A stretch of 64,000 nucleotides of DNA from Squalus acanthias (Eukaryota), in assembly GCA_030390025.1 (NCBI GenBank), contig CM059431.1, positions 112,098,001 to 112,162,000 of the forward strand, written 5' to 3'. Positions within the stretch are counted from its first letter, which is position 1. Each line of letters starts with the position of its first letter. Made by a program: the position numbers and the translations under genes. Below are positions 26,001 through 60,389 of this stretch, piece by piece. The notes below the pieces were generated by a model. The model was not told the origin of the DNA. It worked only from the letters and a program-made list of their open reading frames with translations, and did not search any database.

Positions 26001-29000
26001 ACAGGTTGGTCGATCAGAAGGAGACCAGGAGAAATTGCTGGAGGATCCAAGGCAAAAAGGTAAACTATTTAAAATATTTCAAAATGACTACTTTCTGATT
26101 GGGATAGTTTTTAATAACAGGCCCTCAAAGGAAAACTTTGCCCTCAAGGTTAGATATTTTTCTGTAGTTTTATACAACGTCTCTGGGCCACATGTGAGAG
26201 AATTACGTAGCGAGTGAAATACTGAATTTATTCAACTTGCATGAGGGAACCAGAATTACTTCAGCATGAGGTGCATCCAGCAGTCAAACCAGCTGTGTTC
26301 TTTGCCTTGGCTCAGATGGGTTTGACCGGATTTGTAAAGAATCATTTTGCTTTTAGCATAATCTGTGTGGCAAGAATCTAAGTGAAAGATTGGTAGACAA
26401 CTCCTAGTTTCCCTTCTCATTCTCCTTTTTCTCTTTCTCCCTCCACCCCCCCCCCCCCCCCCCCCAAAAATAAATAAATTTGGCCACCTTTATACTGTAA
26501 AGCAGTGCTCACCAATTTGCAAGCTAGAATGTGATTGACTTAAGAAAACTACTAGGCACTTGGTCTAAGCGTTAAACAAAGCTTTAACCAACTGTTTTTC
26601 AACATGGGGATCTAGTTGTGTCCTTCACTAGTTCCTGTTAAAGAATGTCCTGAGCAAGCTGGGCCCATGCCCGAGTATTTATACTCTCCCTGGACAGCGC
26701 CACCAGCAGGCCGCCCAGTATTATTTCATAAGTAATTTCCACATGAATGACAAGATTCATGTCAGTGATCATGAGGGATTCTGCCTGAATGGTTCTTTCA
26801 AAATGAGCGCTAAATATTGGGCCGGATATTCCGATCCCTACGCGTGTGTACACACCCGTAGGGACATCGGAAATGCCGGTTTCAGGCATTCCAAGCGCAT
26901 GCGCTGAAAACTGCCATTTCCGATCTGTCAAGACAGATCGGACGCCTGCCCTGGCGAAGGGCCTCTGCGGGCGGATAGTTCCGCTTTCTGGAGAACCTCC
27001 GCCCGCAGAAAACCCTTAGAAATCTTACGCCTGGTAAAAGCTTTAACCAGCATAAGATTTGAAAAAAGTAAAAAAAAAAATGTTTCACTCATTTTTCATT
27101 TAAAAATACTTTAAAAAAAAAGGTAAGTTTATTTTTAGCCCCATAAAAAACTTTAATTCTTTTTTCAAAAAATTAAATTTTTGTTTAAAATATTTAATTT
27201 ATTGTAATTTCAACTAATTTTAAAAATGTGTTTTAAAAATTTTATTTAATGTTTTAAAGTGTTTTTGGGGTGATCTCCATTCATATATTTGACAGGTTTA
27301 TCTGTCAAGTTTATGAAGGGAGATTTGGCTCCCCATGGCCCACATGATCCCAGGGACGCTTGCGAACTGCATGCGCCCCTGGGATACGTGGGCCCTGCGC
27401 ATTTCGAGTTGGAGAGGCCCAGGAGCGGAAGTGTCCGGACCTTGGGTAAGTGCGTAGATTTTTTCCAGCTCGTAGGCCTCCGCACGCGGGAAGCCTCCGA
27501 TCGGAAAATACGGCCCATTAAGCACCACAAATGTGATGGAACTGGAGCCACCTATAAATAATTGCTTCATTTGTGGAAGTGACTGGTAGATTCCATAAAA
27601 CTGTACATTTTGTAACCACAACATCAATTTGCCCACTCAATGTTAAACTCGTACTGCAGTACATTATAGGATTTCCTTCTTGTATATAAAACCTCCGCCG
27701 TGCAGCAATTTCATTATCTGAACTGTACTTGCACTTGTGTATAAAATAAGCTATAATTTCCTTTTATTATATGTCGACGCTGTGTGATAATGGCCCTGAA
27801 TTTGCGGTCGGAGGCTTCCTGCGGGGAAATGCCTCCGATCAGCAAGTAAAATGCCCGCCTACCTGGTGGTCCAGGAGGTACGGAGACTCGCGGTCCTGGG
27901 CCTCTTCGGGTACCCGCGGGTAGAGGCCCACGTATCCCAGGAGCACAGGCGGTTCGCCAGCCCAACCAATGAAAGAAGGGGAATCCCCATTCATGCTTAT
28001 GGGAATTCCGTATGTACGGCAACCCCATAAGTATGAATGGGAATACCCCCAAAAATACCTCTACAGTTTAAATAAATAAAAAAAAATCACATTTAAAATT
28101 AATTAAAATGGTATTTAATTAAATATTTAAAACAAAAATGTAATTGTTTTAAAGGGGCTAAAATAAACTTACCTTATTTCACAGGTTTTTAAATGTATAA
28201 ATTATTGACTTTGTTTTTGTTTGTTTTTAAAACTCTTACGCTGGTAAAAGCAGGCCTTACTAGGCGTAAGAATTTCACGGGCATTCGCTTGGCAGAAATT
28301 GGGCAAATAGCCCAACTCCGCCCGCGGATGTCCTTTTCCTGGGGATGCGGAGGATCTGTCAAGATCTGACAGCTCGCAAGTTCCGGGGTGCAGCGCATGC
28401 CTAAACTCGGAACTCGTGCGGCCCTTACGGGCGCGTGCACACCTCATATGCACCCATAGGGGCCACGAATTACGGCACATGTATCTGGATGTTGAAGAAT
28501 GAAGTCTTTAAATGCAGTTTGATTTTTGGATTATATATATAATCCATCTTGTATAGAGCCCGGTGGAGAGTTATCACTTAATGATCTAACATGCAAGTAG
28601 GGCGCCATTGTATAATCTCATGATGTAATTCAAAATTGGCCTCCATCTTAAAAACAACATTATCTTCACTTGTGATATCAATAGAAAGCTTGCCTGCTGT
28701 TTGTTTTTAGGGGTAAGATTCAACATGTGTGGTCCAAACAGATGTGTGTAAAGCATCAGCTGGGAATAATACTGGTGTGTGGGTGTGTTGGGCAAAGGCA
28801 CTTGCAGTATCTTCAAAAGCTATTCTGTCTTCAAATGATAAAATGTAGTCAAAATAGTTCTAAAAACATCAAACAAAGGGGAATTTGATATAAATGGAAT
28901 GGGCACTCGCAGCTTGTGTTCCTGTCAACACATAATTTTGAGGTCATTCCTAGATTAAATCCTGTAGAATGTAACTGTTAGTATTGTCTCTTCTCTTTGA

Positions 29001-32000
29001 TCTCTTTTTACAGCTACACAGGCGGTTGGGTTGAAGTGATGTACAATTTTGCTGTAAGCGGAGGGTGCGGGAAATGGTTCAAAATGAAACGAAGGCTAAA
29101 ATCAAATACTGTTAAGTGCATGAAAGAAGGATATTTTTTATTCAACCAAAGTATGGTTTCAAAAAGAAAACTGCAATTAAGTGCTTGATGCACATTTTTA
29201 GGGATTCAGACAAATTATGTGTCAACTTCAATCTGAATTCAAAGTATTGAAATGCAATCGACATTAAAGGACCCTAACAACTTCTCATGGCGCATTCGCA
29301 TATAATATAGATGTAATATCTCTAAGTTTGCAGACGACACAAAGCTGGGTGGGCATGTGTGCTGTGAGGAGGATGCAGAGAAACTCCAGTATGATTTGGA
29401 CAGGTTGGGTGATTGGGCAGATGCAGTATAATGTGGATAAATGCGAGGTTAACCACTTTGGTGGCAAAAACAGGAAGACAGATTATTATCTGAACGGCAA
29501 TAGATTGGGAAAAGGGGAAGTGCAACGAGATCTGGGAGTCCTTGTGCACCAGTCACTGAAGGTAAGCATGCAGGTGCAGCAGGCGGTTAAGAAGGCAAAT
29601 GGTATGTTGGCCTTCATAGCGAGTGGATTCGAGTACAGGAGCAAGGATGTCTTGCTGCAGTTGTACAGGGCCTTGGTGAGACCACACCTTGAGTATTGTG
29701 TGCAGTTTTGGTCGCCTTATCTGAGGAAGGATGTTCTTGCCATGGAGGGAGTGCAGCGAAGATTTACCAGACTGATACCTGGGATGGCAGGAATGACGTA
29801 TGAAGAGAGATTGGGTCGATTAGGCTTATATTCGCTAGAGTTTAGAAGAATGAGAGGGGATCTCATTGAAACTTATAAAATTCTAACAGGACTAGACAGA
29901 CTAGATGCAGGAAGGATGTTCCTGATGGCGGGGGAGTCCAGAACCAGAGGTCACAATCTAAGGATAAGGGGTAAGCCATTTAGGACTGAGATGAGGAGGA
30001 ATTTCTTCACCCAGAGAGTGGTGAACCTGTGGAATTCTCTACCACACAAGGCAGTTGAGGCCAATTCATTAAATATATTCAAGAAGGAGATAGATATATT
30101 TCTTAAGGCTAAAGGGATCAAGGGATATGGGGAGAAAGCAGGGACAGGGTACTGAATTTGGATGATCAGTCATGATCTCATTAAATGGCGGAGCAGGCTC
30201 GAGGGGCCGAATGGCCTACTCCTGCTCCTATCTTCTATGCTTCTATAAGTTCTATTTTATAAGAGGAAGCCAAATAGAAATTAATCAAAGCTCGGTGCTA
30301 GTTTTGTTGCCTTTTAAAAGCAGCCCAGCCCATAACTGAAAAACCTGCACCGAAGCGGTAGATTTCAAGTCATGTTAGGGAGGATGAATCATTATAATTA
30401 TTGATGGGTAATATGTTCGCACTTTGAAATTGTAATAGTATTGGCTGAAAGTTACACGAGTTTTGTTAACCCTATCACTGTCAGTAGCGCAGAGCTCTGG
30501 TTGTGAATATTTGGTATGTGTTAACAGAGCAGGGAATAATAGATTCCAAGAACTGAGATTGTAAGGCTCTAATTTATCCATTGGTGTAACTTCCTAAACC
30601 ACAATAGTAAAGCTTGAATGTTCTAGGAAAGCAGGGAACTCTTATTTTAAATAGAAAGTGCTGGAAACACTCGGCAGGTCAGGCAGCAGAGTCAGAACTG
30701 GAAAAGTTTAGGGAGGAGAGATTTTTAAGCAGGGGCAGGGAGGAGGGGAGGAAAGAACAAAAGCGAAGGTCTGTGAGAGGCTGGAAGGCCGGAGAGATTG
30801 ACTGACAAAAGGGATGATGGTGCAAGGCAAAAGGAGATGGTAATGGAACAAGTTAAGAAACAAAAGATGGCTCTAGATGAGGTGTGACCGATGATGGCAG
30901 CAACATTAACAGCTACCGTGTGAGGAAACGAGAGAGAAAAAAATTAAAGAAATACGAAGGCCAATTTATAGTCTGAAATTGTTGAACTTGTTTTGGACTT
31001 GACATTGAGTTCAACAATTTCAGACTATAATTGTTAATGTTGCTGCCATCATCATTCACACCTCATCTAGAGCCAACTTTTGTTTCTTAACTTGTCCCAT
31101 TACCCGTTCTGCCTGGACCCCTCCCTCTGGCCTCTTACCCTCTCTAGATCTTTTCATTGTTAACTGCCGGCGTGACATCGGCCGTCTCAATTTCTCTGCT
31201 CCCCTCTCTCACTCCAGCCTACCTCCCTCTGAACTTGCAGCACACTCTTCCCTCAGATCCAACCCCGACATTGTCATTAAACCTGCTGACAAGGGTGGTG
31301 CTGTTGTTGTTTGGCGTACCGACCTCTACCTAGCAGAAGCTGAACGGCAACTCTCCGACACCTCCTCCTACCTCCACCTGGACCATGACCCCACTACCGA
31401 ACATCAAGCCACCATTTTCAAGACCGTCATTGACCTCATCTCCTCTGGAGATCTCCCCCCCCCCCCCCCCCCCCCCCACCCCCCCCCACGGCCGCCAACC
31501 TCATAGTCCCCAACCCCGCACAGCCCGCTTCTACCTCCTTCCCAAGATCCACAAACAGGACTGCCCCGGTAGACCCATCGTTTCAGCCTGTTCTTGCCCC
31601 ACGGAACTTATCTCTTCCTACCTCGACTCTATATTTTCTCCCCTTGTCCAGTCTCTTCCTACCTACATCCGCGACTCTTCCGATGCCCTCCGCCACTTTA
31701 ACAGTTTCCAGTTTCCTGGCCCCAACCGCCTCCTTTTCACTGGACGTACAATCCCTCTACACCTCCATTCCCCACCAGGATGGCCTGAGAGCGCTCCGCT
31801 TCTTCCTTGAACAGAGGCCCAACCAGTCCCCATCCACCACCACCCTCCTCCGCCTGGCTGAACTTGTTCTCACATTGAACAACTTCTCCTTTGACTCCAC
31901 CCATTTCCTCCAAATCAAAGGTGTTGCTATGGGTACCCGCATGGGTCCTAGCTATGCCTGCCTTTTCGTGGGATATGTGGAACACTCTTTGTTCCAGTCC

Positions 32001-35000
32001 TACTTGGGTCCTCTCCCTCACCTCTTTTTCCGGTACATTGATGACTGTATCGGTGCAGTCTCCTGCTCTCGCCCTGAACTAGAACATTTCATTCACTATG
32101 CTTCCAATTGCCACCCTTCCCTCACCTTCACATGGTCCATCTCCGACTCTTCCCTTCCCTTCCTCGACTTCTCCGTCTCCATCTCTGGGGATAGGTTATT
32201 GACTAACATTCACTACAAGCCCACTGACTCCCACAGCTACCTGGACTACACTTCCTCCCACCCCGCCTCCTGTAAGGACTCTATTCCATTCTCGCAGTTT
32301 CTCCGCCTCCGCCGCATCTGCTCTGACGATGCCACCTTCCATACCAGTGCTTCCGACATGTCTTCCTTTTTCCTCAACCGAGGATTCCCCTCTACTGTGG
32401 TTGACACGGCCCTCGACCGTGTCCGTTCTATCTCCCGCACTTCTGCCCTCACCCCTGCCCCTCCCTCCCAGAACCACGATAGAGTTCCCCTTGTCCTCAC
32501 CTTTCACCCCACCAGCCTTCACATTCAACGGATCATCCTCCGCCATTTCCGCCACCTCCAGCGTGATCCCACCACCAAACGCATCTTCCCCTCACCTCCC
32601 CTTTCAGCATTCCGCAGGGACCGCTCCCTCCGCGATACCCTAGTCCACTCCTCTACCACCCCCAGCACCCCTTCCCCTTCGCCCGGCACATTCCCGTGCA
32701 AGCGCAGGAGATGCAACACATGCCCTTATACCTCCCCCCTTCCCACTGTCCAGGGCCCCAAACACCCCTTCCAGGTGAAACAGCGATTTACTTGTACTTC
32801 CTGCAATTTAGTATACTGTATTCGCTGTTCACGATGTGGTCTCCTCTACATTGGGGAGACCAAACGCAGATTGGGTGACCGCTTTGCGGAACACCTCCGT
32901 TCAGTTCGTAAGGGGGACCCCGAGCTCCCGGTCGCCTGTCACTTTAATTCTCCGCTCCACTCCCACTCTGACCTCACCATCCTCGGCCTATTACACTGTT
33001 CCACGGAAGCGCAGCGTAAGCTCGAGGAACAGCACCTCATCTTTCGTTTAGGCACCCTACAGCCTTCTGGACTCCACATCGAGTTCAACAATTTTAGATC
33101 ATAACCTCAGCCCCTATCACATTTATATTTTATTTTTTCATCCAACCTTTTGTTTGGCCCCCCCCCCAGTTTTTTTCCCTCCCAGAAGCTGGCAGCTGTC
33201 CTTCATTCTGCCAGTGCATTTCACACTTCATTTAGCCTCAACCAGTCACATTAACACCACCTCTTGCCTTGATCATCTCTTAATGTCTCTCAATGTCTCT
33301 TAATCTCTCCTTTTGTTCTTTCATCCCCTCCCTCTTTTCCCAGCTTTATACTTGCTTTAAATCTATTTCATTTCCTGTTTTTTTCCAGTTCTGACGAAAG
33401 GTCTTCGACCTGAAACGTTAACTCTGTTTCTCTCTCCACGGATGCTGCCTGGCCTGCTGAGTTTTTCCAGCGTTTTCTGTTGTTATTTCCCGTTACCTCT
33501 CCTTTTGCCTTGCACTATCCTCCCTTTTGTCAGTCAGTCTCTCCTGCTTTCCATCCGAACACAGACCTTCCCTTTGTTCTTTCCTCCCCTCCTCCCTGCC
33601 CCTGCTTAAAAATCTCTCTTCCCTAACCTTTTCCAGTTCTGACGAAGGGCTCGACTCGAAACGTTGATTCTGTTTCTCCTCTCCTCGATGCTGCCTGACC
33701 TGCTGAGTGTTTCCAGCACTTTCTGTTGTTATTTCAGATTTCCAGCATCCGCAGTATTTTGTTATTGTCTTATTTTAAATAGTTGCTTATATAATTTTGT
33801 ATTTGATGTAGCTGCTGGCCCTTGAGGAAGGAAAATAATAAAAATGAATTGTATGTAATTTACCAGAATGATGTATACTCCACATATAAACAGGGTTATC
33901 GAAGTGTGTTTTTACTCCATATATTTTTGTGTTGACTGTCCATTCCTAATGTGTACATGTAATTCATTGTTTTGTGATCGAAATAAACTTGATAGCTAAT
34001 GCATTTTGTATTTTTGCTTTAGCATCTGAACCCCTTAGTCTGAAAAACTTTAAAAGGCGATCCCAGTTTTTTGAACAAGGTAAAACAAAAATTAATATGC
34101 GTGTATGTTTTGTGGGGCTGGCTAACATCTAGGCTTCCCGTTATGCTGACTGACTGTTATGGTATTGAAACATATAGTCATGGCTTTCCATATATTCATC
34201 TGCCTGGTAAAGCTTATGATTTTGTATATGCCTCTCTTCTTTCTGTAGGCTCAGCAGAGTTTGTTTTCAATTCATCGGTCTACCTTTGTGGTAATCGTTA
34301 TTCATTGTGTTTTTTTGACAGATGTGTTCATCTTTTTAAAAATGCTGTTTCAGACCTCGGAAATGTTTCCAATTTCTAACCATCGTTAGATATTTGGCAA
34401 ACAAGCGTTCTGTTTTTGTAATTTCACCGAGTGTGTAAATGCCTGATGCAAAATATAAAACAGGATGAAACAGCAGACCATTTGAAGGCCATACCAACAT
34501 TTTAATATGTCATTTTAGATTGTGAAATCTGAGTGTTGGAGTACCAATCCAATTAGTTAGACAGTTCAAAATTTACAATATTGCATTTTGTTAAATATAT
34601 TTTTCTCGAACAAAATCCAATCAGCAGACTAGGTTTGCAACAACAGTGTGTGCTTTAGTAATATTCAAACGGCAACCTGCAAATGTTGGTACGGTCTCAT
34701 TTTTTAACATTACCTCTTGCTTGCTATCTTCACGCAGCTTTGTGAATGAAATGCATCACATCCTTTGTACTCTTTTCCTCTTTTGTGCAATAGTATTGGA
34801 TTTTGCACATTTTTTGTGCCATAAGCATTGTAAACTCAAAGAAAGTGTGTTTGACAAAAATGCATTGTTTTATATACATGCAGAAAACGGATTGAAATAA
34901 TACAAAGTAGTACAATAATCAGTGGTGCCATATCATCTCAAATTACATGACATTACCCATTGTCTCTTTAGGGTGGCTTTAATAGACATCCAGCTGTTTG

Positions 35001-37306: not shown

Positions 37307-40300
37307 TTCCTAGTCTCTGTTGGAATGACAGGTACAGTAGTTGAATCTATTGTATGTCATTGTACCATCAGTTGTCTGGGAATCACTGAAGTAGTCTGCA
37401 TTGTTTGGGATTGGGACACGCGTAGTCTGTTCAATCCCGCATAAGTAGAACAGCATCCCGGGGTGCTTGACTTGTAACTTTAAACAAGAAATGCAAATTG
37501 GCAATAGAATCACATTGAGACCGGCAGCCAGCGTGGTCAAATTAATATCGTCAGCTTATTTTGAATGGCCGATCAATTATGCACCACTTAAATAAATGTT
37601 CTTAATCCACCAGAATGGGAGTTATTTACGCCTTGATTATGATCAGTGAAAATTTCAATTTGTTTTGCTATCAGAGCATTTGTTTCACTATTGATTTAAA
37701 AAAAAAAAATTAAAAGAAGTATCCCGTTGGCCAATGAACATGCACAGCATTTCATATTGGAGCATTCTGAGCCTCTGTTGTCCAAACCAATTTACCATCC
37801 TTTTGCTTCAGGAAGGACATAATGCTACCCTTTTCTAACTGTAGCCCTAATGCTGGCATGTTGTCATGGTGCTGTTGCTGGTTATAAAAAGGAGCATGCA
37901 TGAAGTAGTGGTGATGGCTTATCCTTTTTATTGGTTGTAATTGTGCAGTGGTAGCTCTTGTATAAACAGCCTTTGCCAAATCTAGACTCAGAGCAATAAA
38001 AACAGAAAATGCTGGAAATACTCAGCAGGTCAGGCAGCATCTGTAGAGAGAGAAACAGAGTTCATGTTTCAGGTCGATGACCCTAGACTCCAAGCAATTC
38101 ACTGCAAGTGTTCATCTGAAATGGTAGAAACCATCGCAAGGCGTGCATTGTCAACACTTAAGAATGTGACATGCATCATTCATCGACTTTGAATCACTTA
38201 TTCAATGTTGGTTCTTGTGGTACAGTTCAGCAAAGTTTTATCATCAAATAATGTACTTCACTTTTAGTGTGAATCCTGTAGAATCTCAGCTTTAATGTTT
38301 TAAATTTGATAATGTACAGATTTTACTTCATGTTTTGAATAGCTAAATTCTGACAACGCCAAACATTTTATTACTAATATGACTGAGTGAAATCAGCAAT
38401 TTAAAGATTTCTTGGGAGTTTTAGTCTGGATTCAAGTTTTGGCATTGGTAGTTATTCCTCGTAGTACTAGTGGGCCAATGTGAAAACACACGCCCTTCCT
38501 TACTTCCACGCACAAAAGCTTTCATTTACCTAATGGTTTTGATCGTTTGGGACTATTAGGAAAAATATCAGCGCGAGCAGGAGAAACTGCAAGAAGAGTG
38601 GAAAAAGGCCCAGGAAGAGGCTGAACAAGAAGGTTCCAAGTACTATGAAGAGGTAACGAGAGATGCATTCAACAGGTTGTGGGGGGGCGGGTATCCATGG
38701 AGATGAGGGAAAGGGCAACACACCAATCTCTGAAACAGCAATACATTTTAGATTGTTTTAAGTTAGAAGGGGACTAAAAGGTATTAAAGTATTGACTGAG
38801 ATCAAACATTTTGGAGTTTTGTTGTTTCGTGTCAAATTTAGCCATAATAAACATCCCTTTAACAGCCAAACTGGAAAATATTGATTTCTGCCTTTCTGAT
38901 GTTGCAATAATTCATCATATAAATGTTCATCATATATTACTCAAAATTGGTAATCTGGTGTTTTTGATTAGAGTATATTTTTACGCTTCTGGGTCCGAAC
39001 ACTTTAAAAAAATGTCTAGTGGCTTTAACAGGCTTTCCTTACAAAAGCTGAATTATTTTTTTTTTAAACTGAGAGCTGCCAGTTACTAATAGCAACCATT
39101 AGGCAAAACCTTTTTTCCTGCTGGTATTATGATTGATGGCTTTGACTTGCCAATGAAACAGAATGGGGATGGGGAGCATTTTCTTTAATTATCTATCTTT
39201 CGGCTGATTTTTAAGACCGCAGTGACTTTTTAAATGTCCTATTCTTTCGACTTCCATGTACAAATAGAATGTTGCTATCATTCCTTGGGGCAAAACAGTA
39301 CTGCATACAAAACACCCGTGGGCACTGCCCTTTGTAAGAAATTCATGCCTTGTGCTAGCACGAGATAAGTATTCTTCTCCAAATCATTGCAATTGCTGTT
39401 TCATTCTTTGTTTTGAGTTCAAAAGATCTTCAACTTTCCAAGTACATGTAGAAAGGCATTTTTCTTCTAGGCTGTTGCCTACTTATTAGCAGCAAAATTC
39501 TCATCGCATTTCACAGCACAGTATTCAGCAGTGGCCAACCCTAATTGGATCAATAGCAAAATACTGCGGATGCTGGAAAACTGAAATAACAACAGAAAGC
39601 GCTGGGGAAAAACTCAGCAGGCCAGGCAACATCCGTGGAGAGAAACAGAGTTAACGTTTCTGACGAAGGGTCTTCGACCTGAAACGTTAACTCTGTTTCT
39701 CTCTCCACGGATGTTGCCTGGCCTGCTGAGTTTTTCCAGCGCTTTCTGTTGTTATCCTAGTTGGATCAACTCTGGTGCATCTTTTTCAGACACTATTGGG
39801 TAACAAACAGCTGCTAATTTTAAATTTGGACCCAGTGGTTATGGATCCTTCCCCATAACTAAATCGCATAAAACGTTGTCTTCTCGGTCTTCCATCATTA
39901 CCTGGTTTTGATGTGCAAGTCATGCTCAAAACTCCGCACAAGGTTCACTGGGCCACAATCCTGGCTACAGAAATGTTGATTCTCTCAGAAATGAGACACT
40001 TGGCATCCAGTTCTATCCAGAAGCAATCATTCAATTCTCGGCCAGCAAGTGAACGAAGGGTGGTCAGGGAGTGTTAGTAATAAAAGAAAGAAAAGAAAGA
40101 CTTGCATTTATATCGCGCCTTTCATGACCACCGGATGTCCCAAAGCGTTTTACAGCCAATGAAGTCACTTTTAAAGTGTAGTCACTGTTGTAATGTGGGA
40201 AACGCGGCAGCCAATTTGCCCACAGCAAGCTCCCACACACAGCAATGTGATAATGATCAGATAATCTGTTGTTTTATTGATGTTATTGAGGGATAAATAT

Positions 40301-43300
40301 TGGCCAGAACAACGGGGATAACTCCCCTGCTCTTCTTTGAAAAAGTGACATGGGATCTTTACGTCCACCCGAGAGAGCAGACGGGACCTTGGTTTAACGT
40401 CTCATCCGAGAGTCATCACCTCCGACAGTGCAGCACTCCCTCAGCACTGCACTGGGGGTGTCAGCCTAGATATTTGTGCTGATGTCTCTGGCGTGGGACT
40501 TTAACCCACAACCTTCTAACTCGGAGCCGAGGGTGCTACCCACTGAGCCACGGCTGACACTATGATGTACCATTTTAGCCACATTCTGTTGTACAAAAAC
40601 GGTTGGCTTGTTTGAGATGGAGTCTATCCTCTTCTTTCTCTTCCTTCCCCGCTCTCTCTTTCTCTCCCCCCCCCCCCCCATCTATATGATTGTGACTCGA
40701 ACAGTACTTCGCAAGACGTTGCACTGGTACAGGCACCGGTTTATTCCACGGCATTCACAGAGGTGAGGACTTTGGATTCGACCAAGTTCCTTGAGACAGT
40801 TGGAACCACACGAAGGGCAACAGCTTGTATTTAGATAGCGCCTTTTAAAGTAAGAAAACGTCCCAAGGCACTTCACAAGAGTGTCCTCAGGAAAAAAATT
40901 GACACTGTGCCAAAGAAGGAATTTTAGGAAGTGTGACTAAATGCTTGGTTGAGGAATTGGGTTTTAAGCAGAGTCGTAAAGGAGGAGAGCGAGGCTGAGG
41001 TTTAGGGAGGCATTTCCAGAGCTTAGGACCTAGACAGATGAAGGCATGGCTGCCAGTGGTGGGGTGAAGGGAGTGGGGGATGCACAAAAGGCTAGAGTGG
41101 AAGAACAAAGAGTTCTTGGAGGATTGTAAGCCTGGAGAAGGTTACAGAGATGTGGCGAGGCCATGGAGATTTGGGGGGCAAAAGTGGCAGCCGCCAAACT
41201 ACGTGGGGGAAAAAAACTTTTTTTTTGTGTTGCTGCTGAGGTCTGTGCATGGCCGTGCTCTGAAAGCACTTGCTCAGGCCCCTTCATGATTATTCCTTAA
41301 AGGCCACCCACTATTGACCATTGACTGCTGGATGCTGGACCCCAATTGGCAGCTCCTATTTCCAGTGTGGAGGGAGATGTGCTGGAGGATGTTTTCCCTC
41401 CATCTTCATTTCATTAATGCGCACCTGCCCAAATATGGGGGGGTACATTCTTCAGTACTGAACCCACCCTTCAGACAAGGGCGGGATGCAAGGATGTCTG
41501 TCCTAAATCCATCGGAAAAGTGCCAGGAATAAGTCAGAAAGCCTTGGTCTTGCTTCACAATCAAAGATTCCGCTGCTGAAACCCTCATCCATGCCTCTGT
41601 TACCTCTAGACTTGACTATTCCAATGCACTCCTGGCTGGCCTCCCACATTCCACCCTGTGTAAACTTGAGGTCATCCAAAACTTGGCTGCCCGTGTCCTA
41701 ACTCGCACCAAGTCCTGTTTATCCATCACCCCTGTGCTCGCTGACCTGCATTGGCTCCCGGTTAAGCAACGCCTCGCTTTCAAAATTCTCATCCTTGTTT
41801 TCAAATCCCTCCATGGCCTTGCCCCTCCCTTCAGCCACACAACCCCCCTGAGATATCTGCGCTCCTCTAATTCTGCCCTCTTGAGCATCCCTGATTATAA
41901 TCACTCAGCCATTGGTGGCTGTTCCTTCTGTTGCCTAGGCCCTAAGCTCTGGAATTCCCCGCCTAAACCTCTCCGCCTCTCTACCTCTCTTCCCTCCTTT
42001 AAGACGCCCTTAAAACCTACCTCTTTGACCAAGCTTTTGGTCACCTGCCCTAATTTCTCCTTATGTGGCTCGGTGTCAAAGTTTTTGTGTTTTAATACTC
42101 CTGAGAAGCGCCTTGGGACGTTTTACTACGTTAAAGGCGCTATATAAATAATTGTTGTTGTTGTATCTGTGGTTTACCTAACCTAACGTGAGTTAATTAC
42201 TACTGTTTAATTGCATAATGTTTCATTGATTGAGTTCTCAATGCCACCCCTACAGGGCAAAGAAGGCACAGCCCAGTAGTGGAGAGGGATATATCCTAAT
42301 CTTGCAAGATGCTAATTTTCTTGATTGGGGCTGTGATCCAGTTGTTTGTGCCCTCCACGTATTTGCATATGGTGATTGAATATCTTTCAAAAAAAATAAA
42401 GAGGACACTATTTGCAGCAAGTAATCTAACACACCCATCGTCTCTCTGGCACGGCTAGACTTCAGTGGTCACATAATATAGGGCTCATATGAAAATAATT
42501 GTGCTTTTGACCTCCACTTTGACTATATGCCCTTTTTGCCATGTCTTTGTGGCTAAAATATACTTGGATGAGTTACTGGAGGATCTGCCCACCATAGAGC
42601 CTTCTCCAACATGACTTCAAAAGGAGAGATGTGAGGATGCTGTTTATAGTGGTAGAGGGAGAAGGAGAATGAACTGGATACTTTTCTTGGGAGTAAGCAC
42701 TTAAAAATCTAATACTCCCTTCCCCCCCCTTCCATCCCACCCTCCTTCCCCGGCCCACTCTATATACATTTTAAGAAAGTTCGATTGAAGCACCTTTTGT
42801 CTCTCTTGGTAAGCTAAATATAATTTTAATTTTAATAGGAGCGCAAGATACTACAGGAAACAAACACTCCACAATTGCCTTCAAATGCAGTGGATGAGCC
42901 TGTTGAAGTCAAAAACCGGTACAGTTCTCGAAATTGGTCAACATCTTGGGGCGAACAGGACTCCGAGGAAGAATTGCAGGAACTGGGAGAGGAAGAGGAT
43001 TGGCACCAAAGAGAAGATGATGAGGCGAGGCAACGAGAGGAATTGTGGTTACAAGAAGAACGAGAACGTCAAGAAGCAGCAGCTCGCCTTGAGCAAGAGA
43101 GAAAACTGCAGGAAAAGAGAGAGCTTGAACGCCAAGAACAATGGCATCTCGAGCAAGAGAGACTTAAAGAAGAGAGAAGACAGAGACAACAGGCGGAAGA
43201 GAGAGCGCGGTTGGCAGAGACTGAAAGAGCTGAACAATTTCAACAGCAGTGGTAAGATTCTGAAGCCCGATCTAGTTTATTGAAGTAGTCTGCGGTACCA

Positions 43301-46300
43301 GATGTCTGCATCTCCACTCCCGATTGCTGTGATCTGTTAAATGCATTGCACTACGAAAATTGGAAACCATTTAGTGATTCGGTTATTAATTTTTAAGAGA
43401 AAATAGAAAAGTCCCCCAAATTAAAGCGATTAAATTTGTTTAAAAATGGCAGTAGCTACTAGAAAGATTGCATTCACCTGCAGTGTCTTCTTATCTATCT
43501 TTATACATTTAAATCTAGGTCACGTATGCATGAACATAATTGTTTTCTGATTGTGGTGCAGTACGTTGATGCTTCAGTGAACTGGACTAGCTGGTCCAAC
43601 AGTTTTAGATGATCTCGGCCATATTTCTGTTGTGTTTATGGGAGGGGGAAGAGGTGCTAGGTAAGTGGACGGTAGGTGCTTCACCACCGGGAAAGACGAT
43701 GACATCATAGAAACATAGAAGATAGGAGCAGGAGTAGGCCATTCGGCCCCTCGAGCCTGCTCCGCCATTCGATGAGATCATGGCTGATCATCCAAACTCA
43801 GTACCCTGTACCTGCCTTCTCCCCATATCCCTTGATACCTTTAGCTTTAAGAAATATATCTAACTCATTCTTGAATATATTTAATGACTTGGCCTCAACT
43901 ACCTTCTGTGGTAGAGAATTCCACAGGTTCACCACTCTCTGGGTGAAGAAATTCTTCCTCATTTCTGTCCTAAATGGCTTACCCGTTATCCTTAGATTAT
44001 GACCCCTGGTTCTGGACTCTCCGACCATCAGGAACATTCTTCCTGCATCTAGTTTGTCCAGACCTGTCAGAATTTTATATGTTTCGATGAGATCCCCTCT
44101 CATTCTTCTATACTCCAGCGAGTATAAGCCCAATCGACCCAATCTCTCCTCATATGTCATCGGAATATGGTGACAGGGGCAGAAAAATGTCAATATTCCA
44201 TTTGTTTTGTATGCCCACGAAATTGTTCAATTGCTCGTCGGCAATTGGGGTCATTCGGTTTTGTTGTGATCTGCTAGTCTATCCGGAATCTGTTTATAAG
44301 AAAATGACTGGTGTAGCTTCACATACTTTATATAATAACCAGCCTGCAATGCCATTATGATTATAGGGCCAAGTCAAAGTCAACCTCTGAACTTGATGAG
44401 ATGGTGTCTGCACCAAGACATGGTAAGTTTCTCCTCCTCGACTGTTTCAACTGGGGAGTAAAAACAGATTTGGATTTCCTTTCGCTAGCCACTTTAACCA
44501 GCCAGTGATTCAATCTTCAATGAATTGAGAATATCTTGGCTCCATTTATTCAGTAAGCATTGGTTGCATGTTCAGAATTTTGACTCTGAAACAGTAACAA
44601 TCAAGAGTGAAATATGGCTTTGCAGGTATTCAAAGTAGGTAGTTACAACAATCACAAGGGAACAATTATGCCTATGAATATCCCTTGACAACCTCTTAAA
44701 AGAAGTTGAATGAAATGCAACTTAAATTTAAAATATTCCAATTAATAAACACGAGCCTGTCGCAAATGTAATTACTGAAGAACCCAGTCAGCGCTCATTT
44801 GTTTGGGTACCAGACTCTGCTTCAGTTACAGATATGCTTGGGTAGTGCTAGCGTTATGCAGCCAAGAGCAAATAACTGTTGTTACAGTATATGTGGGGTG
44901 GATTATAGATGGGATTAGGCATTTAAAAAAAAATGTTCAAGCATTTCTTGGCCTTTGCCTTTAACTTTTTATTTGAACACACATTGAAAACATTATCCTT
45001 GCATGAGAGCTAATGGCGTGCTGTGTGCCTATTCAAACGTGCATTTAGGTGTAAATGTGAGACCAGTGGGTGGTGTGGCCCAGTGGCTGCTCGAAGAAGA
45101 CAAACTTCGCAGGAGTTCTGGGAAGACACGGGATGCAGCACGAGCTGAATTGGAAACTGAGAGGCTGAGAATCCTTAATCAGATGAAATATGCTGACCCA
45201 GAGAGAGGTGGGGAATATGCCCTCTGATCAGCAGCCAACCTTTACCATCATTTTTCTATCATTCCAATGATCAAACTAATCGGCTAATTTTCAGCTGCAC
45301 TTTAAACCGCTGCTTCCATTGTCAAGCTTTTTTTTTTAAGATGCACTGAGTTCTGCTTCAAAATGGAATTGTTTCTCAAATGAATCATCTTGTTGGCACG
45401 TTAATCACAGGCGTGTTCCCTTGATGTGCAAGGCACCTGCTGAATGCGCTGATGCAGTGCTGCGTTGATTCTTGGATGACCAATATTTTAACGCTAAACG
45501 TGCTATTTGTTCCTGGTAGTTGCTTGATCGCACTAACCATCGCAATCGTAATTTTCTTCCCCCAGTTCTGTTATAATCTACTAATGGAACAGGCCTTTCC
45601 AAATCAATTTTGAGTATGAGTGCTTATTTTGGGCTACGCTGATATTTGAAAATTAAATAATTTGTCCTGGAGAGTTGGTCGTTCTGCATGTTATGAATGC
45701 TCCACCGATTTTTTTAATTTGACGATGCACACGATTTATGCTGATAACGTAATTATGATGAAAGAATGTTCTGCCAATTCATACGCACAACAATGCAAAT
45801 GTATTTCAGCACTGCGATGATGAGCTTGGATTTGTTCATAACACTCCACGCAAATGGGGTTTGGTATTTGCAATTGCAGATGCCCCATCTTTAAATACAA
45901 ACAATCAGTTGGGATAATCCGAACTTTTCTAATACGGCCAATAGACCAATTGAAGCGCAGTGGCAAAACATTTGGGCTCTTAACGATTATCTGCCTTGGT
46001 CGATAGGTGATGTGAAGAGCAAAGTCGCAGACAGCGCGTGGATTAAGAGCGAGTCACAATCGAAAACCTCACAACAGAAAGAGCCACCACTCTCGCATGC
46101 TGAGCAGGAGCGACAGAAAATCCTGCAAGAGATGCGTAGAAAGACCCAGCTCCTGAACGACAATAGCTGGATCAGACAGCGCAGTGCCAGTGTTGCTGCT
46201 AAGAATGCACTCGGTAATTATGGATCAATGAGAAGGTATGAGCCACATCAAAGTAGCAGTAGTATTTCTTTTATTAATTCACGGGATATGGGCATCGCTG

Positions 46301-47433
46301 GCAAGGCTAGCATTTATTGCCCTTCCCTAATTGCCCTTGAGAAGGTGGTGGTGAGCCACCGCTGCAGTCCGGCTGGTGAAGATACTCCCACAGTGCTGTT
46401 GGGGAGGGAATTCCAGGATTTTGACCCAGCGATGATGAAGGGGCGGTGATATATTTCGAAGTCAGGATGGTGTGTGAGTTGGAGGGGAACCTGGAGGTGG
46501 TGGTGTTCCCATGAGCATGTACATCTAGGTGCTAGAGGTCGTGGGCTTGGGAGGTGCTGTCTAAGAAGCCTTGGTGAGTTGCTGCAGTGCATCTTGTAGA
46601 TGGTACACACTGCAGCCACGGTGCGCCGGTGGTGGAGGGAGGGAATGTTTAATGTGGTGGATGGGATGCCAATCAAGTGGGCTGCTTTGACCTGGATGAT
46701 GTCGAGCTTCTTGAGTGCTGTTGGAGCTACACTCATCCAGGCAAGTGGAGAGTATTCCATCATACTCGTGACCTGTGCCTTGTAGATGGTGGAAAGGCTT
46801 TGGGGAGTCAGGAGGTGAGTCACTCGCCACAGAATACCCAGCCTCTGACCTGCTTTTGTAGCCACAGTATTTATGTGGCTGGTCCAGTTATGTTTCTGGT
46901 CAATGGTGACCCCCAGGATGTTGATGGTGGGGGATTTGATGATGGTAATACCATTGAATGTCAAGAGGAGGTGGTTAGACTTGAAGATCGTGGGCTGGAT
47001 TTTCAATGACCCATGGAGTCGGGTTTGGAGGCGTGTGGGGGGTTAAATTTGCGGGGTGGGGGTTTCCGACTCCATCTCGCCTCCACGCAATTTTGACAAA
47101 ATCAGTCGCGGGGTTCCCGACTCTCTCCCGACTGCAAGAGGCGGGAGAGGCCATTAAAGCACTTAACAAGCCCTAAATTGGCTCTGTAATGCTATTTTGA
47201 AACGTTTTAGCTAGTTTAACCCTTTTCTGACGTGAAGCACGCCTGGTGTGAAACACTCCAGTGAAACCTGGCGGGAGCACAAGTGGATAGCTGACTATCG
47301 GCTGCAAGTCCACTATTACAACGGAGATGTGATGAAGGTAGTAGTATTAGGTGTAAAAGTCACCTCTGATACTGCTGCATTCAATGTCATGGCATTTGGT
47401 GTAAGAGGACTTGGATGCAAAAAAATTCTCTCT

Positions 47434-48530: not shown

Positions 48531-51500
48531 GTGGTTCAAAGATGTCACCAACAAAAAAAGGCAGGAAGCGGTAGACTTTAAATAGCGCTCCCCCAGTCCC
48601 TTCCTGACTGCAAAACGCTCCCCTCAACCTGTCGTTGCTAGCGGCAGGCGGTAAGGCAGGGGACAGCACTCAATATCCGCTCCGGGGCGTTGCGCACTCG
48701 ACTGACGTCACGATCTGCCGGCGCAGGAGATCGTGGCGGTAGTGTTTAGCGCCGTCGCAAAATGTCTAGTTAATTTCGTGAGCGGCGCAAACATCGCCGC
48801 GCCCGGGCGCTAGTTGCTTTGCGCCCTCTTAAGGCGCCAACGGGAGGCGCAACCAACTGAATTTTTCCCCCCTAGGTTCCAACTACCTCTAATTGTCAAA
48901 CTGCACTAAATTTTGCTGCTTAACTATCAATTCAGAACATTTAAAAATAAGCAAAGAATGTATGGCTTTAAAATGGGGACTGAATTAAGTCTGTGCTCCC
49001 TGGTCCAATTATCCCTGCTCTCTAATTTGGTCATGACTCCCCGTGTGTGTGTGTGTCCCCTCTCTGCTCTTCTTTCTCTCCCTCTCGGCCTTTCACACTC
49101 TCCCTCTCTCCCTCCCTCTCAGCCTCTTCTCCCTCCCTCTCGGCCTCTTCTCCCTCCATGTGCAATGTCAAAGGACATTGACTAGTGTTTAGGGAAAAAA
49201 TAGAGTTGGTTTTGTTGAAATGTAATTTTGTCTTCAGACACCCACGATGAAAACATCACTAAGCCTTACATTTTTGGATTTTTATACTAGATATTTCTTT
49301 GGGTTCAGTGTCTATGGCCACTTCCATAAGCAGATATCACATTCCCTATAAACCAGAATGTGGCTTTACCTACCCAATGTCGATGTAAATGTCACGAGAC
49401 CTGTCGATCAAAGAACCCTGTCGCTGTGCTCTAACCTACTATGATATGTGTCACCACGTGATCCTCTTGCTTTAAGTAGGCGGAAGAATGTGTCAGACCA
49501 TGGATCAGGCTATAAACCATTAGACTCATTTATTGAACATTAAACAGGTGGAAGATTATTGAACCTACAAAAAATATAGATTTGACTATTCTTGGAATGA
49601 AAACAGCAAAGACATTTCCCCTGCACTAAATTTCAACATAAATCTCACTCTTGGAAACACAGCCAATTGCATCTGTCATGGCAGTTTACTATCATAGAGC
49701 CTTCTGGCTAATTCCATCAGTGCTGGCTTTGCACTATTTGCTGATTCCATGCAATACCACCCAAGAAATAGCTCCAGTGCCTTTGAAGATATCTTGGAAC
49801 AAATCACTTTAAAGCTTTATTTCTCATAACGGCATTTAGGTTGTCAAACCTTCACAGGATTCAATATCAAAACAGTGTTTACTCACAGAAATACAGCTGC
49901 CAAATGAACATGTACTATAAATAGTCCCACAGGATGCTTGTAATTGGATGGAATGGCTTAAACCATTGCATCCAAACACTTTGATCTGTGCGACAGAGCC
50001 CCAACCAAGAACTGTGGCAGCAATTAGCGATTGACAAATCGAGGATGGTAATTTAATTCAATGCATACTGTTTGCACCACAAGCCTGACAGAAATAAATT
50101 CAGGTGAACTCTTTTAGTGCAATAATGTCCTTAAAAAAAAAAAGTTTTTCTTTAAAGTACAAAACATTACACTATCAAATAGCAGGACGTTCTCTTGCTT
50201 CACTGCCAGAGTTTTGTTAGGATGCATAAAAATCATAGAATCATAGAATGGTTACAGCACAGAAGGAGGCCATTCGGCCCATTGAGCCCATGCCAGCTTT
50301 CTGCAAGAGCACTTCAGCTAGTCCCACTCCCCCGCCCTTTCCCCGTAGCCCTGTAAATGTTTTTCCTTCAGGTACTTATCCAATTCCCTTTTGAAAGCCA
50401 TGATTTAATCTGCCTCCACCTCGCTCTCAGGCAGTGCATTCCAGATCCTAACCACTCGCTGCGTAAAAAAGTTTTTCCTCATGTCGCCTTTGGTTCTTCC
50501 GCCAATCACCTTAAACCTGTGTCCTCTGGTTCTCGACCCTTCCACCAATGGAAACATGCTTTTGAACACCTCGATCAAATCTCCCCTCAACCTTCTCTGC
50601 TCTAAGGAGAACAACCCCAGCTTCTCCAGTCTATCCACGTAACTGAAGTCCCTCATCCCTGGAACCATTCTTGTAAATCTTTTCTGCACCCTCTGTAAGG
50701 CCTTCACATCCTTCTTAAAGTGCCGTGCCCAGAATTAGACACACTACTCCAGTTGAGACCAAACCAGTGTTTTATAAAGGTTCATCATAACCTCCTTGCT
50801 TTTGTACTCTATGGGCTGGATTTTACTCACCGAGACGCGTTGGGGGCGGGACTGCTGCCTTCCGGGTTCTAGTCCCGCCCCCAGCGACGTTTGACGAACA
50901 GACGCTATTTTGCCCTGATTGGCCTAGTTAAGCTGGCCAATTAAGGGAAAGCCGGTGTCAGATGACGTCAGTTGATGACGCTTCATCTGCCGGTTTTCTT
51001 AAAGGCATATGCACCACACTTGTTTGACATGATTTGACAGTGTTTGACAGCATTGAGGTGCTGTCGAACACTGACAATCACTGTCCAAAGGTGAGCCCTT
51101 TCACCCAGACTCTCCAATTACTCTCTCCTTGGGATAAAACAGATGGCAGCTGCAGCTGAGATTGCAGAAGCCATCTGTCACTTCTCCCGATGAGATGAGG
51201 CTACACAAACACTTCACAGCTCGTCACCTGCAGAAACAGCTAACCACATTAAAAATTACTTTCACAACAGGTCCTTACCTCTGATACTCACCAGTGTCCT
51301 TCACACCACTTCTGCAGCTGTCATCCAAATACCAACATAACAGACCCACAGCATGCCTCACTTACCCTGGCGGGGTTCCCCGACGTCGGGAAGCCCGCAG
51401 CAGCAGTCGAAAAATTGGAAAAAGCCTCTTAACTGCCTGTTAACAGGCAGTTAAGTGGCTATAATCCTCTTCCCGCCGCTAGGAGTCGGGTCCCTGCTCA

Positions 51501-54500
51501 AATCGGGGACCCGACTCCTGGGAAGATTGGTTGGAGGCGGGTTGGGAGCGGGTTTGGGACCCCGCCTCCTCAGGGCTGGATTTGGTAAAATCCAGCCCTT
51601 TGCCTCTATTTATGAAGCCCAGGATCTCGTATTCTTTTTTGACTGCTTTCTCAACCTGCCCTGACACCTTCAACGATTTGTGCACATATACCCCAGGTGT
51701 CTCTGTTCATTTAAAATTGTACCCTTTAGTTTATATTGCCTCTCCTTGTTCTTCCTACCAAAATGTATCACTTCGCACTTTTCTGCATTAAATTTCATCT
51801 GCCACGTGTCCGCCCATTCCACCGGCTTGTCTGTCCTCTTGAAGTCTATCACTATCCTTCTCACTGTTCACTATACTTCCAAGTTTTGTGTCGTCTGCAA
51901 ATTTTGAAATTGTGCCTTGTATACCCAAGTCCAAGTCATTAATATATATCAAGAAAAGCAGTGGTCCTGGTACCGACCCTGGGGGAACACCACTGTGTAC
52001 CTTCCTCAAGTCCAATAAACAACCGTTCACCACTACTCTCTGTTTCCTGTCACTTAGCCAATTTCGTATCCATGCTGCCACTGTCCCTTTTATTCTATGG
52101 GTTTTAACTTTGCTGGCAAGCCTATTATGTGTTACTTTATCAAACGCCTTTTGGAAGTCCATGTACACCACGTCAACCGCATTGCCCTCATCAACCCTCT
52201 GTTACCTCATCAAAAAACTCAATCAAGTTAGTTAAACACAATTTCCCTGTTTCTTAACCTATGGGATGGATGAGCAGGATTTAGAATTTAAAAAGATATG
52301 CAAGTAAAGCTCTTTCATCGAAGCAAAAAATAGCAAAAGTGTTTTTTGCCACATTTTATTTGTAGTAGATACAAAAATACTAAACAGTATTTTGATGGAG
52401 GCACCTCAGGTGCTGCATGCATATTGAATGTGATGGGAAGGGGAAGAGAGGAGAAGAGGGAGAGTGAGCGGGCTGACCAGTTGAGCACCTCGCAAGATTG
52501 GTGAAAGTCTGTAGATCTCTCGTCCTCCACGTCACCCAGGGGCACCTGAAATTTGGCATTTCTTTGCCTTCCTAAAGCTTATTGTGGGGTGGCTGTAATT
52601 ATGTTGATTACTGATTTTATGCTATTAATGTGGAACATGGAGGCTGATTTAGTCCCAAAGTACTCAAAATAAATAAATAAATAAATAACATTATGCGAAT
52701 CAGAAGCATTGAGTGAATTGTATTATGATCACTTCTGTTTCAGGGGCGAATCTTTGGATAACTTGGATTCCCCAAAGGCAAACACTTGGGGATCAACTTC
52801 CGAGCCAGTGTATTCCTCAGGAAAGGAACCAGCTCACTACCCGGTCTCCACTTCAAACCGATTCTACATACGCACTCCATCATCGACCTTACCACCTCAA
52901 TCCACTGGATCAGTGAGAACAGCATCATGGACCAAGAACCCTTCAGTTGCCCCAACTGCTCAGTCCCAGACAACTCAAGGCAACAGGTATGGCCCGGCAC
53001 CTCAGCAGTTGGATGAAAATGTTGTGCAGTGTATTAGTTGCGTGTGTATAATTCAATGTTTGTGCTTTTATACTCTGTGTAAATGCAAGAACTACTTCAT
53101 GGAAAATGCTCTTCACAATAGTTCACTGACTATTAGAATGTTTTCATGCACAGTTTTGCTAAACCGGTCGGGTATTCGTCCAAATTCACGTAATCATAAA
53201 TAGAAGAAACCTGTATCTGTAGACTTATCAATGTCACTATTGTCCCCTTGTTAGCTTGTTTAGTATTTCAAACTGTAATCCGAGACGTGAATGGGAATGC
53301 CAGCACTCTACATTCATTTCACCGGAGCAAAGCTTCCCCTCAAGTCACTGCAGGAATGCTGCCCAAAAAAATACCCACTTTTAACCAGTGATTTTCAAGA
53401 CATGTTAAGCGAGGGTGACTGAAACACTGCTAAATGTTATCTAAAAAGAAATCTCCAGCTATTTTGGTAGAATTGCTGAAATCAAACCCGATGGACACAC
53501 CTCTGAAATGCAGACATATCAGAAATGTTCAGGAGTCGAAATGAGATTTTCTAGTCCATCTGAAAATGCTCCAATGCCGCCCTGATTTCCGCACCCCCCA
53601 AAACTCTATGGGGGAGAAATTCGGTATCTCCCCCCCCCCCCCCCCCCCCCGTTTGGGGCGCTAAATTTTAAAAGTTGAAAAAATTAGCGCCAGGCGCTAA
53701 TGTTTGTCAAATCGTTTTTGCGCACCAGGAAGGAAGTGGAGTGTTAAATCAAGCTCTCCACTTCCTTCCTGGTGAGCAACAGGCAGTAGGCGGGGCGGTA
53801 GGTGAGCAGCTGCACAATGGGCCGAGCAGCGCTGCCGCGTTGGAAGGCTCCTTCCCTCCCTTAAAGGGAAAGGCCATCACTGCAGGCTCGGCAAGGAAAA
53901 AACTTACCTGGTCCCCAACGGCAGCCGTGATCCGGCCCGATCAGCCCGATGCACTGCAGCAGAGTGCAGGGTTGATCGATCGCTGGCGAAGAATTTTTTT
54001 TTTAAAAAAGAGAGCATTTCACAATTTTTCCCCCCCCCTTACCTCGGCCCCCGAACCGCCCGGCCTCCTGATGAACGCCTCCTGCAGCTGCCGGTGTTGT
54101 CGCCCGGCAATGCTGCAGGGGGCGGAACCGAAGTTCGGGTCCGGGGCGATGCGCACGGTGATAACGTCAAGATCTCCGGGCGAAGGAGATCGGAACGCAA
54201 CGCCACACCGCCGCCACAAACCTTCTGCCGAATATAACGGGAGTCGATCTTCTCGCTGCGCCCGATCGGTAAGTGATTAGCGCCCCGTTATTCCGCCCCC
54301 CCCCCCGAGGCGATAACGGGAGGCGCTAAGGTGCCCAATTTCTAGCCCCAAATCTTTAAACATATGTAAATGAGCATTCCAAGTCTTTTTTTGGGCTTCT
54401 TGTTCACGGTCAGATTTTCTTTGTGCAGGGTGTATGGTTGTTTTTTCTTGTAGTAAAGACTTTTTCTGTACAATTGTTTCTCATGTAATCTTGAGGCCAT

Positions 54501-59295: not shown

Positions 59296-59921
59296 TAGTT
59301 TTAATATTCAAAATCACCTGATCTATCTACATATTAGAAGTATGTAAACAGGCAAGATTGGCAAGGATTTGTATACTGACAAATGGGGAAACTTGGCATC
59401 AATTTTTCTTAAAATATGTGATATTGTGACAAATTGAGAATATTCTGTCTAAACTGGAAGCTGGTAAGCATTTGTACACTCTTTCTGAAGCAGCTTATAT
59501 TTTTCCTTGAATAGTCTCAGCAGTGGTTAGAAAATGTCACAGCACTGCAGTTTAATTGAATAGTATACAGTTAACAAACTGACAAGTGCCTGATTCCTAT
59601 CAACCTGAGAGACTCCTGTGAAGTTTTACAAGCTCCAGTTGAATTTTAAACACTGCTGTGAAGTTATTCTCGGCTAATTCTGGCTAAGATTCAGCTACTG
59701 AGCATATGTGTATTTAGAAATCTAACTATGATATTAATATGGAGCAGATTATTATTAAAATAATGTGTGCATTAAAGCATTTTTTAGAATGTCACAAGCA
59801 CATAGAAAGCTGTAGTTCTCTTAAAATGGTGCCTATAGGTATGGTTTGTTATGTACTTCAATCAAATGATGCCACCTTGTGGTGTGATTGCAACAATTAC
59901 TACAAACACTGTTAATATTTT

Positions 59922-60138
59922 ACAATAGCAAAATACTGCGGATGCTGGAAATCTGAAATAACAACACAGAATGCTGGAAACACTCAACAGGCCAGGCAGC
60001 ATCCGTGGAGAGAGAAACAGAGTTAACGTTTCAGGTCTGTGACCCTTCGTCAGACGAAGGGTCACAGACCTGAAACGTTAACTCTGTTTCTCTCTCCACA
60101 GATGCTGCCTGGCCTGCTGAGTGTTTCCAGCATTTTCT
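59922..60138. mobile_element. Fold-back PLE-derived hairpin element
   Basis: near-perfect palindrome centred at 60052; perfect 14-bp TSD ACTGTTAATATTTT (59908-21, 60139-52); hammerhead core on minus strand 60018-60053. Confidence 0.88.
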
Positions 60139-60389
60139 ACTGTTAATATTTTTGTTTAGTTAACTTTGTGCAATTATCCCATTGCACAGAGTATATTTTC
60201 TACTATTAAAGCCACGTTTCTGAAATTCATTGGTGTTCTATTTGATTAAAAAAACTGAAGATACTTCAAGGCTCAAGTGAGGTATGTAGCGTCGGTTTGC
60301 TCGGAATTTTGATTTCCTGTAGAGACGTGTGCTTTATTTTTCAGTGAATTTGTTTGAGACTCTTGTGATAGATTTTGGAACTTCATTGC

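Follow-up and report, generated by a model that had tools for sequence, protein, structure and literature searches.

How does a short fold-back with a hammerhead core at its apex come to lie in an intron, and does the ribozyme take part in its origin? This question is raised by a locus in a 64-kb stretch of Squalus acanthias DNA (hereafter the window), where a sequence-only reading had proposed an insert of about 200 bp within a target-site duplication. The insert as we delimited it spans 202 bp (39554-39755) between two copies of a 14-bp duplication (39540-39553 on the left, 39756-39769 on the right) identical at 13 of 14 positions, a match expected by chance at about 2e-7 per register and about 8e-5 across 400 registers. 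It is composed of two 5'-truncated end pieces of a Penelope-like retroelement (PLE) placed head to head and joined at a 3-nt microhomology. The inverted piece forms the left stem arm (39586-39660, minus strand) and its truncated 5' end is the G of GAAA (33412 in the parent). The sense piece (39658-39755, plus strand), which has no tail, is identical to the first terminal repeat of the parent (33389-33486) at 95 of 98 positions, in agreement with the PLE origin proposed earlier; comparison with that repeat placed the TTC common to both arms at the head-to-head junction (39658-39660). Outside the stem, the left arm carries 32 additional nucleotides (39554-39585, minus strand), found in this arm only, which are the PLE tail at the 3' end of the inverted copy and align to two other tails of the family, that of the last repeat in the parent and that of a second fold-back at 60 kb. 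The tail measures 32-35 nt, the upper figure including 3 matching bases of the duplication. Both outer ends of the insert are PLE 3' ends and they differ by exactly the tail.

The two arms (39586-39660 and 39681-39755) form a 75-bp stem in which 73/73 aligned bases match, with two 2-nt gaps. The minimum free energy (MFE) of the fold is -150.9 kcal/mol (z -18.9) and none of 200 shuffled sequences was equally stable; the pairing of inverted and sense end pieces that had been claimed is thus recovered. A motif scan and folding, using the features given in PMC4209133, placed a minimal type I hammerhead motif at 39660-39692 (plus strand), with CUGACGA at 39660-39666, a bulged A, stem II (39668-39672 with 39676-39680), GAAA at 39681-39684 and a palindromic AACGUU, cleavage being predicted after 39688. 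The core features CUGANGA, stem II, GAAA, NUH and palindromic helix III are all present, and helix I is cut to 2 bp instead of 4-5 bp. In the folding, every base of GAAA and of the predicted cleavage triplet is engaged in the long stem (unpaired probability 0.00), so that the sequestration of GAAA announced by the sequence-only reading held. Its placement of CUGACGA in the loop was right for the motif except for the first C (39660), which lies in the stem, and its placement of stem II there agrees with the 20-nt loop, although the MFE hairpin of this loop (CGAAG/CUUCG) competes with the hammerhead stem II.

In the intact copies of the family, AGUU ahead of the core forms a helix with AACU beyond the cleavage site. 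The minimal metazoan PLE hammerheads described in PMC4209133 have in common with the shark motif CUGANGA, the bulged base before stem II, GAAA and the palindromic positions 15.2-16.2, and with the intact shark copies a 4-bp helix I. The insert copy differs from them by a G-U pair at 10.1-11.1 (A-U in the parent) instead of G-C, by the loss of helix I and by the sequestered GAAA. The same source reports that the palindromic helix III sequence of minimal PLE hammerheads needs a dimer and, in 2014, that dual minimal motifs stand 100-700 bp apart on opposite strands. Rfam gave no match at gathering score anywhere in the 64-kb window; at E<=10, the 15 matches between 39400 and 39900 were all below gathering, none of them a hammerhead, and correspond to generic hairpin fits. 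Because no Rfam hammerhead model matches, the ribozyme label is based on motif and context only. The hammerhead of the insert is predicted to be inactive, and the best explanation for its presence would be that of a passenger.

As had been proposed, the insert lies in an intron of LMO7 (38653-42838, GT..AG), on the same strand as the gene and 901 nt from the donor. The flanking exons on the plus strand, 38560-38652 upstream (matched part; tblastn with shark LMO7 proteins) and 42839-43279 downstream (tblastn with LMO7 proteins), were placed using three of the LMO7 proteins retrieved by a homologue search in which the exon frame recovered those of shark, ray and chimaera first. LMO7 was identified through these homologues; of 8 frames compared with Pfam, 6 (including five candidate LMO7 exon frames) had no match to a family. 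The LMO7 introns also contain many LINE reverse-transcriptase fragments (9888-11682, 29268-30246, 41533-42166, 43707-44160, 46314-47042, and 50254-52239), and the fragments 29793-30246 and 43707-44160, which are oppositely oriented, are 92% similar. Other inverted repeats, with no relation to the PLE, occur at 26829-28400, 51423-51460, 53718-53779, and 1655-1709, with nested arms at 26897-28400 that resemble a MITE-type DNA element.

A self-search of the window recovered the same PLE repeat at six insertions. The one that we call the parent is a 5'-truncated parent-type PLE (30640-33782, plus strand) with a 15-bp exact duplication, an inverted tail-less arm on its left, a tail on its right and two terminal repeats bearing hammerhead motifs (33391 and 33639). 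Its reverse transcriptase (RT) and GIY-YIG frame (31434-33104) is stop-free over 556 codons, with a frame change at a poly-C run near 31450; the Pfam matches to RVT_1 (E 2e-4) and GIY-YIG (E 5e-4) are weak and both under the Pfam cut-offs, and the closest among the named homologues come from sharks and rays (64-70%). The frame includes a CX2-5CxxC linker at residue 422 and two cysteines before YIG (CCHH in EN), and the DKG is found in the upstream frame. According to PMC8557442, such a linker is diagnostic of Neptune and Nematis and does not occur in Penelope/Poseidon; as judged from its protein motifs, the parent carries a linker of Neptune/Nematis type and matches the motifs of these clades. 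The two right-hand repeats of the parent are only 76% alike, i.e., two subfamilies are joined in one insertion. Its inverted left arm has lost the hammerhead through an internal deletion, and a further internal inversion is located at 30839-31104.

The second fold-back (59908-60152), a 217-bp insert with an exact 14-bp duplication, differs from the 39.5-kb fold-back in its junction and stem-II loop; its apex is a near-perfect palindrome with hammerhead remnants on both strands. The remaining insertions are a decayed fold-back without convincing duplication (13545-13690) and two non-inverted tail-less copies on the minus strand, one truncated at stem II (37982-38090) and one at 20684-21323. Target duplications of 14, 14, 15, and 13 bp were found at four insertions, 8 exact bases at the fifth, and nothing convincing at the sixth. 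An inverted arm is present in 4/6 of the insertions, and in each of these four the tail is present at only one of the two ends (the 13.6-kb copy being decayed). The comparison of fold-backs was made on the two well-preserved ones only. Within a fold-back, the two arms have variants in common (73/73) that neither the other fold-back nor the parent possesses, and 75/83 and 96/108 alignment columns are identical between the two. These counts fit independent events, each probably from one source RNA. The suggestion that the insert is a recurrent product of the PLE machinery is thus supported by the frequency of inverted arms and by the two fold-backs with different junctions and stem-II loops.

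The arrangement itself, an inverted truncated copy with a one-sided tail, is the textbook arrangement of PLEs. As in the endonuclease-bearing PLE insertions described in PMC3846280 and PMC8557442, we observed a head-to-head inverted repeat, a tail at one end, a target duplication, and microhomology or a palindrome at the junction; these sources describe an adjoining inverted 5'-truncated copy and a one-sided tail of 30-40 bp. The insert differs from them in that both copies are cut to about 100 nt with no ORF left, and the duplications in the shark window (13-15 bp) are longer than those of the rotifer examples (8-10 bp) in the same sources. Homology to a parent with RT and GIY-YIG, the inverted 5'-truncated copy, the one-sided tail and the target duplication all place the insert among PLEs, and it is a young, ordinary PLE insertion. 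L1 twin or dual priming (PMC2837659; PMC10191854) resembles it by an inverted and a sense cDNA joined internally within one duplication, but the arms of the insert duplicate one and the same RNA segment, those of L1 twin priming (PMC2837659) corresponding to adjacent segments, and there is no poly(A).

Considering the anatomy, the parent element and the shared variants observed in the window, we infer that the two end pieces were made in one integration, during which the PLE protein primed reverse transcription at both staggered nicks, and we give this reading a probability of about 70%. The GIY-YIG domain would nick both strands about 14 nt apart, and each nick would prime a cDNA on uncleaved RNA from one source. 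The use of two internal start sites 32-35 nt apart would produce one tailed and one tail-less end. One of the cDNAs would reach, completely or nearly, a fixed 5' boundary just upstream of the core, probably the 5' end of the RNA. The products would then be joined at the 3-nt microhomology by annealing of the two cDNA ends or, alternatively, by snap-back of one cDNA, the extension of which would pair with the other cDNA. In the experiments reported in PMC11167929, a purified PLE protein, predicted to be a dimer, cleaved and extended both strands in vitro, and reverse transcription started on unprocessed RNA at two internal sites whose interval corresponds to the genomic tail; ribozyme cleavage was not needed. 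This in vitro system uses PAc, an Anolis element of the Poseidon clade, which has in common with the shark family two 3' ends separated by the tail, a hammerhead near the ORF start and uncleaved templates, whereas the shark parent has the CX2-5CxxC linker that Penelope/Poseidon lacks and an ATG downstream of the hammerhead, that of PAc being in stem II. The parts of PMC11167929 that we consulted describe no fold-back products for PAc.

The best surviving alternative, which we nevertheless consider unlikely, is that priming occurred once, and that a single cDNA (or an antisense template) folded back and was copied into the second arm, the second nick serving only for ligation. The TTC/GAA microhomology would permit such a snap-back with a 20-nt loop, the arms of the insert are identical in substitutions, and the 60-kb fold-back, with its palindromic apex and a short arm that is a subset of the long one, is also explained by snap-back of a single cDNA. 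Arkhipova et al. (PMC3846280) indeed read the junction palindromes of rotifer PLEs as self-priming. However, neither arm of the 39.5-kb insert contains the other: the left one has the tail and the right one has 23 nt located 5' of GAAA, and one cDNA copied back on itself therefore cannot give both. The loop belongs to the tail-less arm, whose copy cannot supply the 32-nt tail of the other arm, so that a second priming event is still needed for this insert. The identity of the arms could also be kept by gene conversion.

Sequencing contigs provided a broader view of the family. The contigs of 4 of 24 sequencing runs were aligned to the parent segment 32300-33495; by our guess at run types, X1, X5, and X8 are DNA-like and come from two organisms, X1 perhaps from that of the window itself, and X6 is RNA-like. 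We recovered a sharp hot spot of 5' ends, with at least 217 (X1), 241 (X5), and 383 (X8) contigs beginning at 33387/33388 with unrelated flanks, out of 6028, 4187, and 6773 partly fitting contigs, respectively, where a uniform distribution would give about 2-3 starts per place; the hot spot concerns copies with unrelated flanks and not the apices of fold-backs. Among the best 24 of 3806 loose-end entries, position 33388 accounts for 217, 136, and 213 contigs (X1, X5, and X8) and position 33387 for 105 (X5) and 170 (X8), the X1 count thus referring to 33388 alone among the entries listed. No entry at 33387/33388 was found for the RNA-like run X6 among these best 24. The loose ends at the hot spot have a low agreement (0.33-0.36), an A-rich consensus and a median length of 255, and we read them as true 5' ends of the element in unrelated DNA in two organisms. 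We rejected an artefact of subfamilies with other upstream sequence, since those stand apart at 33380/33381, with an agreement of 0.57-0.66 and short loose ends. The sense arm of the insert (39658-39755) begins 1-2 nt inside this hot spot.

Hammerhead helix I begins with A33387, which lies inside CCAGTTC (33385-33391), a sequence found directly before the core and also at 33633-33639 and in the 20.7-kb copy. We take CCAGTTC to fit the initiator consensus, a motif that is weak alone, the parent repeat containing 5 matches within 55 nt; it is the only initiator-like match common to all three copies with upstream sequence. In both runs listing that place, A33387 is preceded by G in the consensus, possibly, as we presume, the G that a cap would contribute. 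Alternatively, CAG at 33386-33388, which follows a pyrimidine tract, could be a splice acceptor, the flanks being upstream exons. In the Drosophila virilis PLE, an intron ends at helix I (PMC4209133) and the start lies further upstream (PMC2377424).

The sharp 5' boundary just upstream of the hammerhead core may mark an RNA 5' end, in which case the short elements would be run-off cDNAs. We tentatively propose, at somewhat less than even odds, that the commonest product of the family is a run-off cDNA of 100-135 nt, comparable to a "strong-stop" product, extending from the two internal RT start sites to a capped RNA 5' end at A33387, and that priming at both nicks then yields head-to-head short elements whose apex falls at the ribozyme as the RNA begins there. 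The summed depth at 33420-33459 relative to the ORF median was 4.5 (X1), 6.2 (X5), and 4.4 (X8), ratios that are not copy numbers and to which other subfamilies may add. It was 39.5 times the ORF median in X6, which we did not count as expression, depth being a poor basis for ranking and the run type a guess.

The excess of the hammerhead-to-tail segment over the ORF in X1, X5, and X8, in which short units dominate, would also be expected of a mobile non-autonomous hairpin or retrozyme-like family, one of the two origins that had been suggested, whose fold-back would be transcribed whole and inserted anew. Mobilisation of sequence in trans by PLE repeats is known (PMC3846280). The window did not bear out such a family, which we regard as improbable: both well-preserved fold-backs (2/2) differ from each other in junction and loop, no head-to-tail hammerhead repeats were found, and both ends of the insert coincide with RT start sites, as expected of a primary product. 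Furthermore, the 39.5-kb junction was matched by none of the best 15 of 255 joints, a weak argument as hairpins break assemblies; one of these 15 joins opposite strands (33378/33443, X6). Non-LTR retrozymes (PMC7229834; 10.64898/2026.07.22.740005) resemble the insert in being short, non-coding, hammerhead-bearing and PLE-derived, but in a retrozyme two or more units, all bearing a complete hammerhead, follow one another head to tail (10.64898/2026.07.22.740005). We rejected this class for the insert, which is head to head with a single core and could not give rise to a monomer cleaved twice or to a circle.

Two other groups of candidates were also discarded. The terminal inverted repeats of a MITE or fold-back DNA transposon reach both ends, and in the insert the inverted repeat stops 32 nt short of one end, where the tail lies. 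A scan of sequence collections with the core pattern gave 19 loci, all chance matches, none similar beyond about 23 nt or with the downstream half of the hammerhead; scans of a viral contig collection and, with the 3'-arm pattern, of metagenomes gave 0 matches each.

We consider it very improbable that the ribozyme itself causes the junction, the RT stopping at a self-cleaved end or stalling at stem II and then switching template. The proximity to the ribozyme implied by the earlier suggestion of template switching is real. The arm 5' ends, in parent coordinates, are 33389 (sense) and 33412 (inverted) for the 39.5-kb insert and 33390 and 33393 for the second fold-back; these four ends and that of the 38-kb solo copy lie within about 25 nt of the core, and two of the five (33412 and about 33400) flank stem II, where structural stalling may contribute. 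However, the four arm ends (33389-33412) are all upstream of the predicted cleavage site 33419/33420, and every one of the five ends includes sequence located 5' of it. The templates were therefore uncleaved RNA, and the position of the junctions argues against cleavage as their cause. In addition, no loose end was observed at 33419/33420 among the best 24 of 3806 entries, and hammerhead mutants left insertion in vitro unchanged in the experiments of PMC11167929.

A selected host element, either a pre-miRNA or endo-siRNA hairpin or a regulator of LMO7 splicing, is the most implausible origin: LMO7 pre-mRNA would fold there into a near-perfect stem of 75 bp and contigs of the RNA-like run cover the family segment, but the insert, 901 nt away from the closest donor, is young and belongs to a very abundant repeat, Drosha substrates are about half as long as its stem, and the Rfam miRNA matches are far below gathering scores. 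A literature search on Penelope hairpin siRNAs returned reviews only. The fold-back is most likely a neutral double-stranded stretch of the intron.

Priming at both nicks in a single integration remains our preferred reading. The 202-bp insert, ordinary in itself, is of value as a clean and minimal record of PLE integration, with one tailed and one tail-less end, one template and one microhomology. Tandem and inverted PLE products are still called unexplained in PMC8557442 and PMC11167929. Our literature search, a weak guide to novelty with most subscription papers and Repbase outside its scope, found no shark-specific account and no run-off model. If the run-off reading is true, it would account for hammerhead-to-tail pieces exceeding ORFs several-fold and for the dependence of PLEs on tandem copies when moving as complete elements, and shark genomes would represent a very large natural archive of intermediates in PLE integration. 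If the hot spot corresponds to a transcription start, these genomes would provide a very large sample on two-site, two-strand priming and would carry a heavy load of intronic double-stranded RNA.
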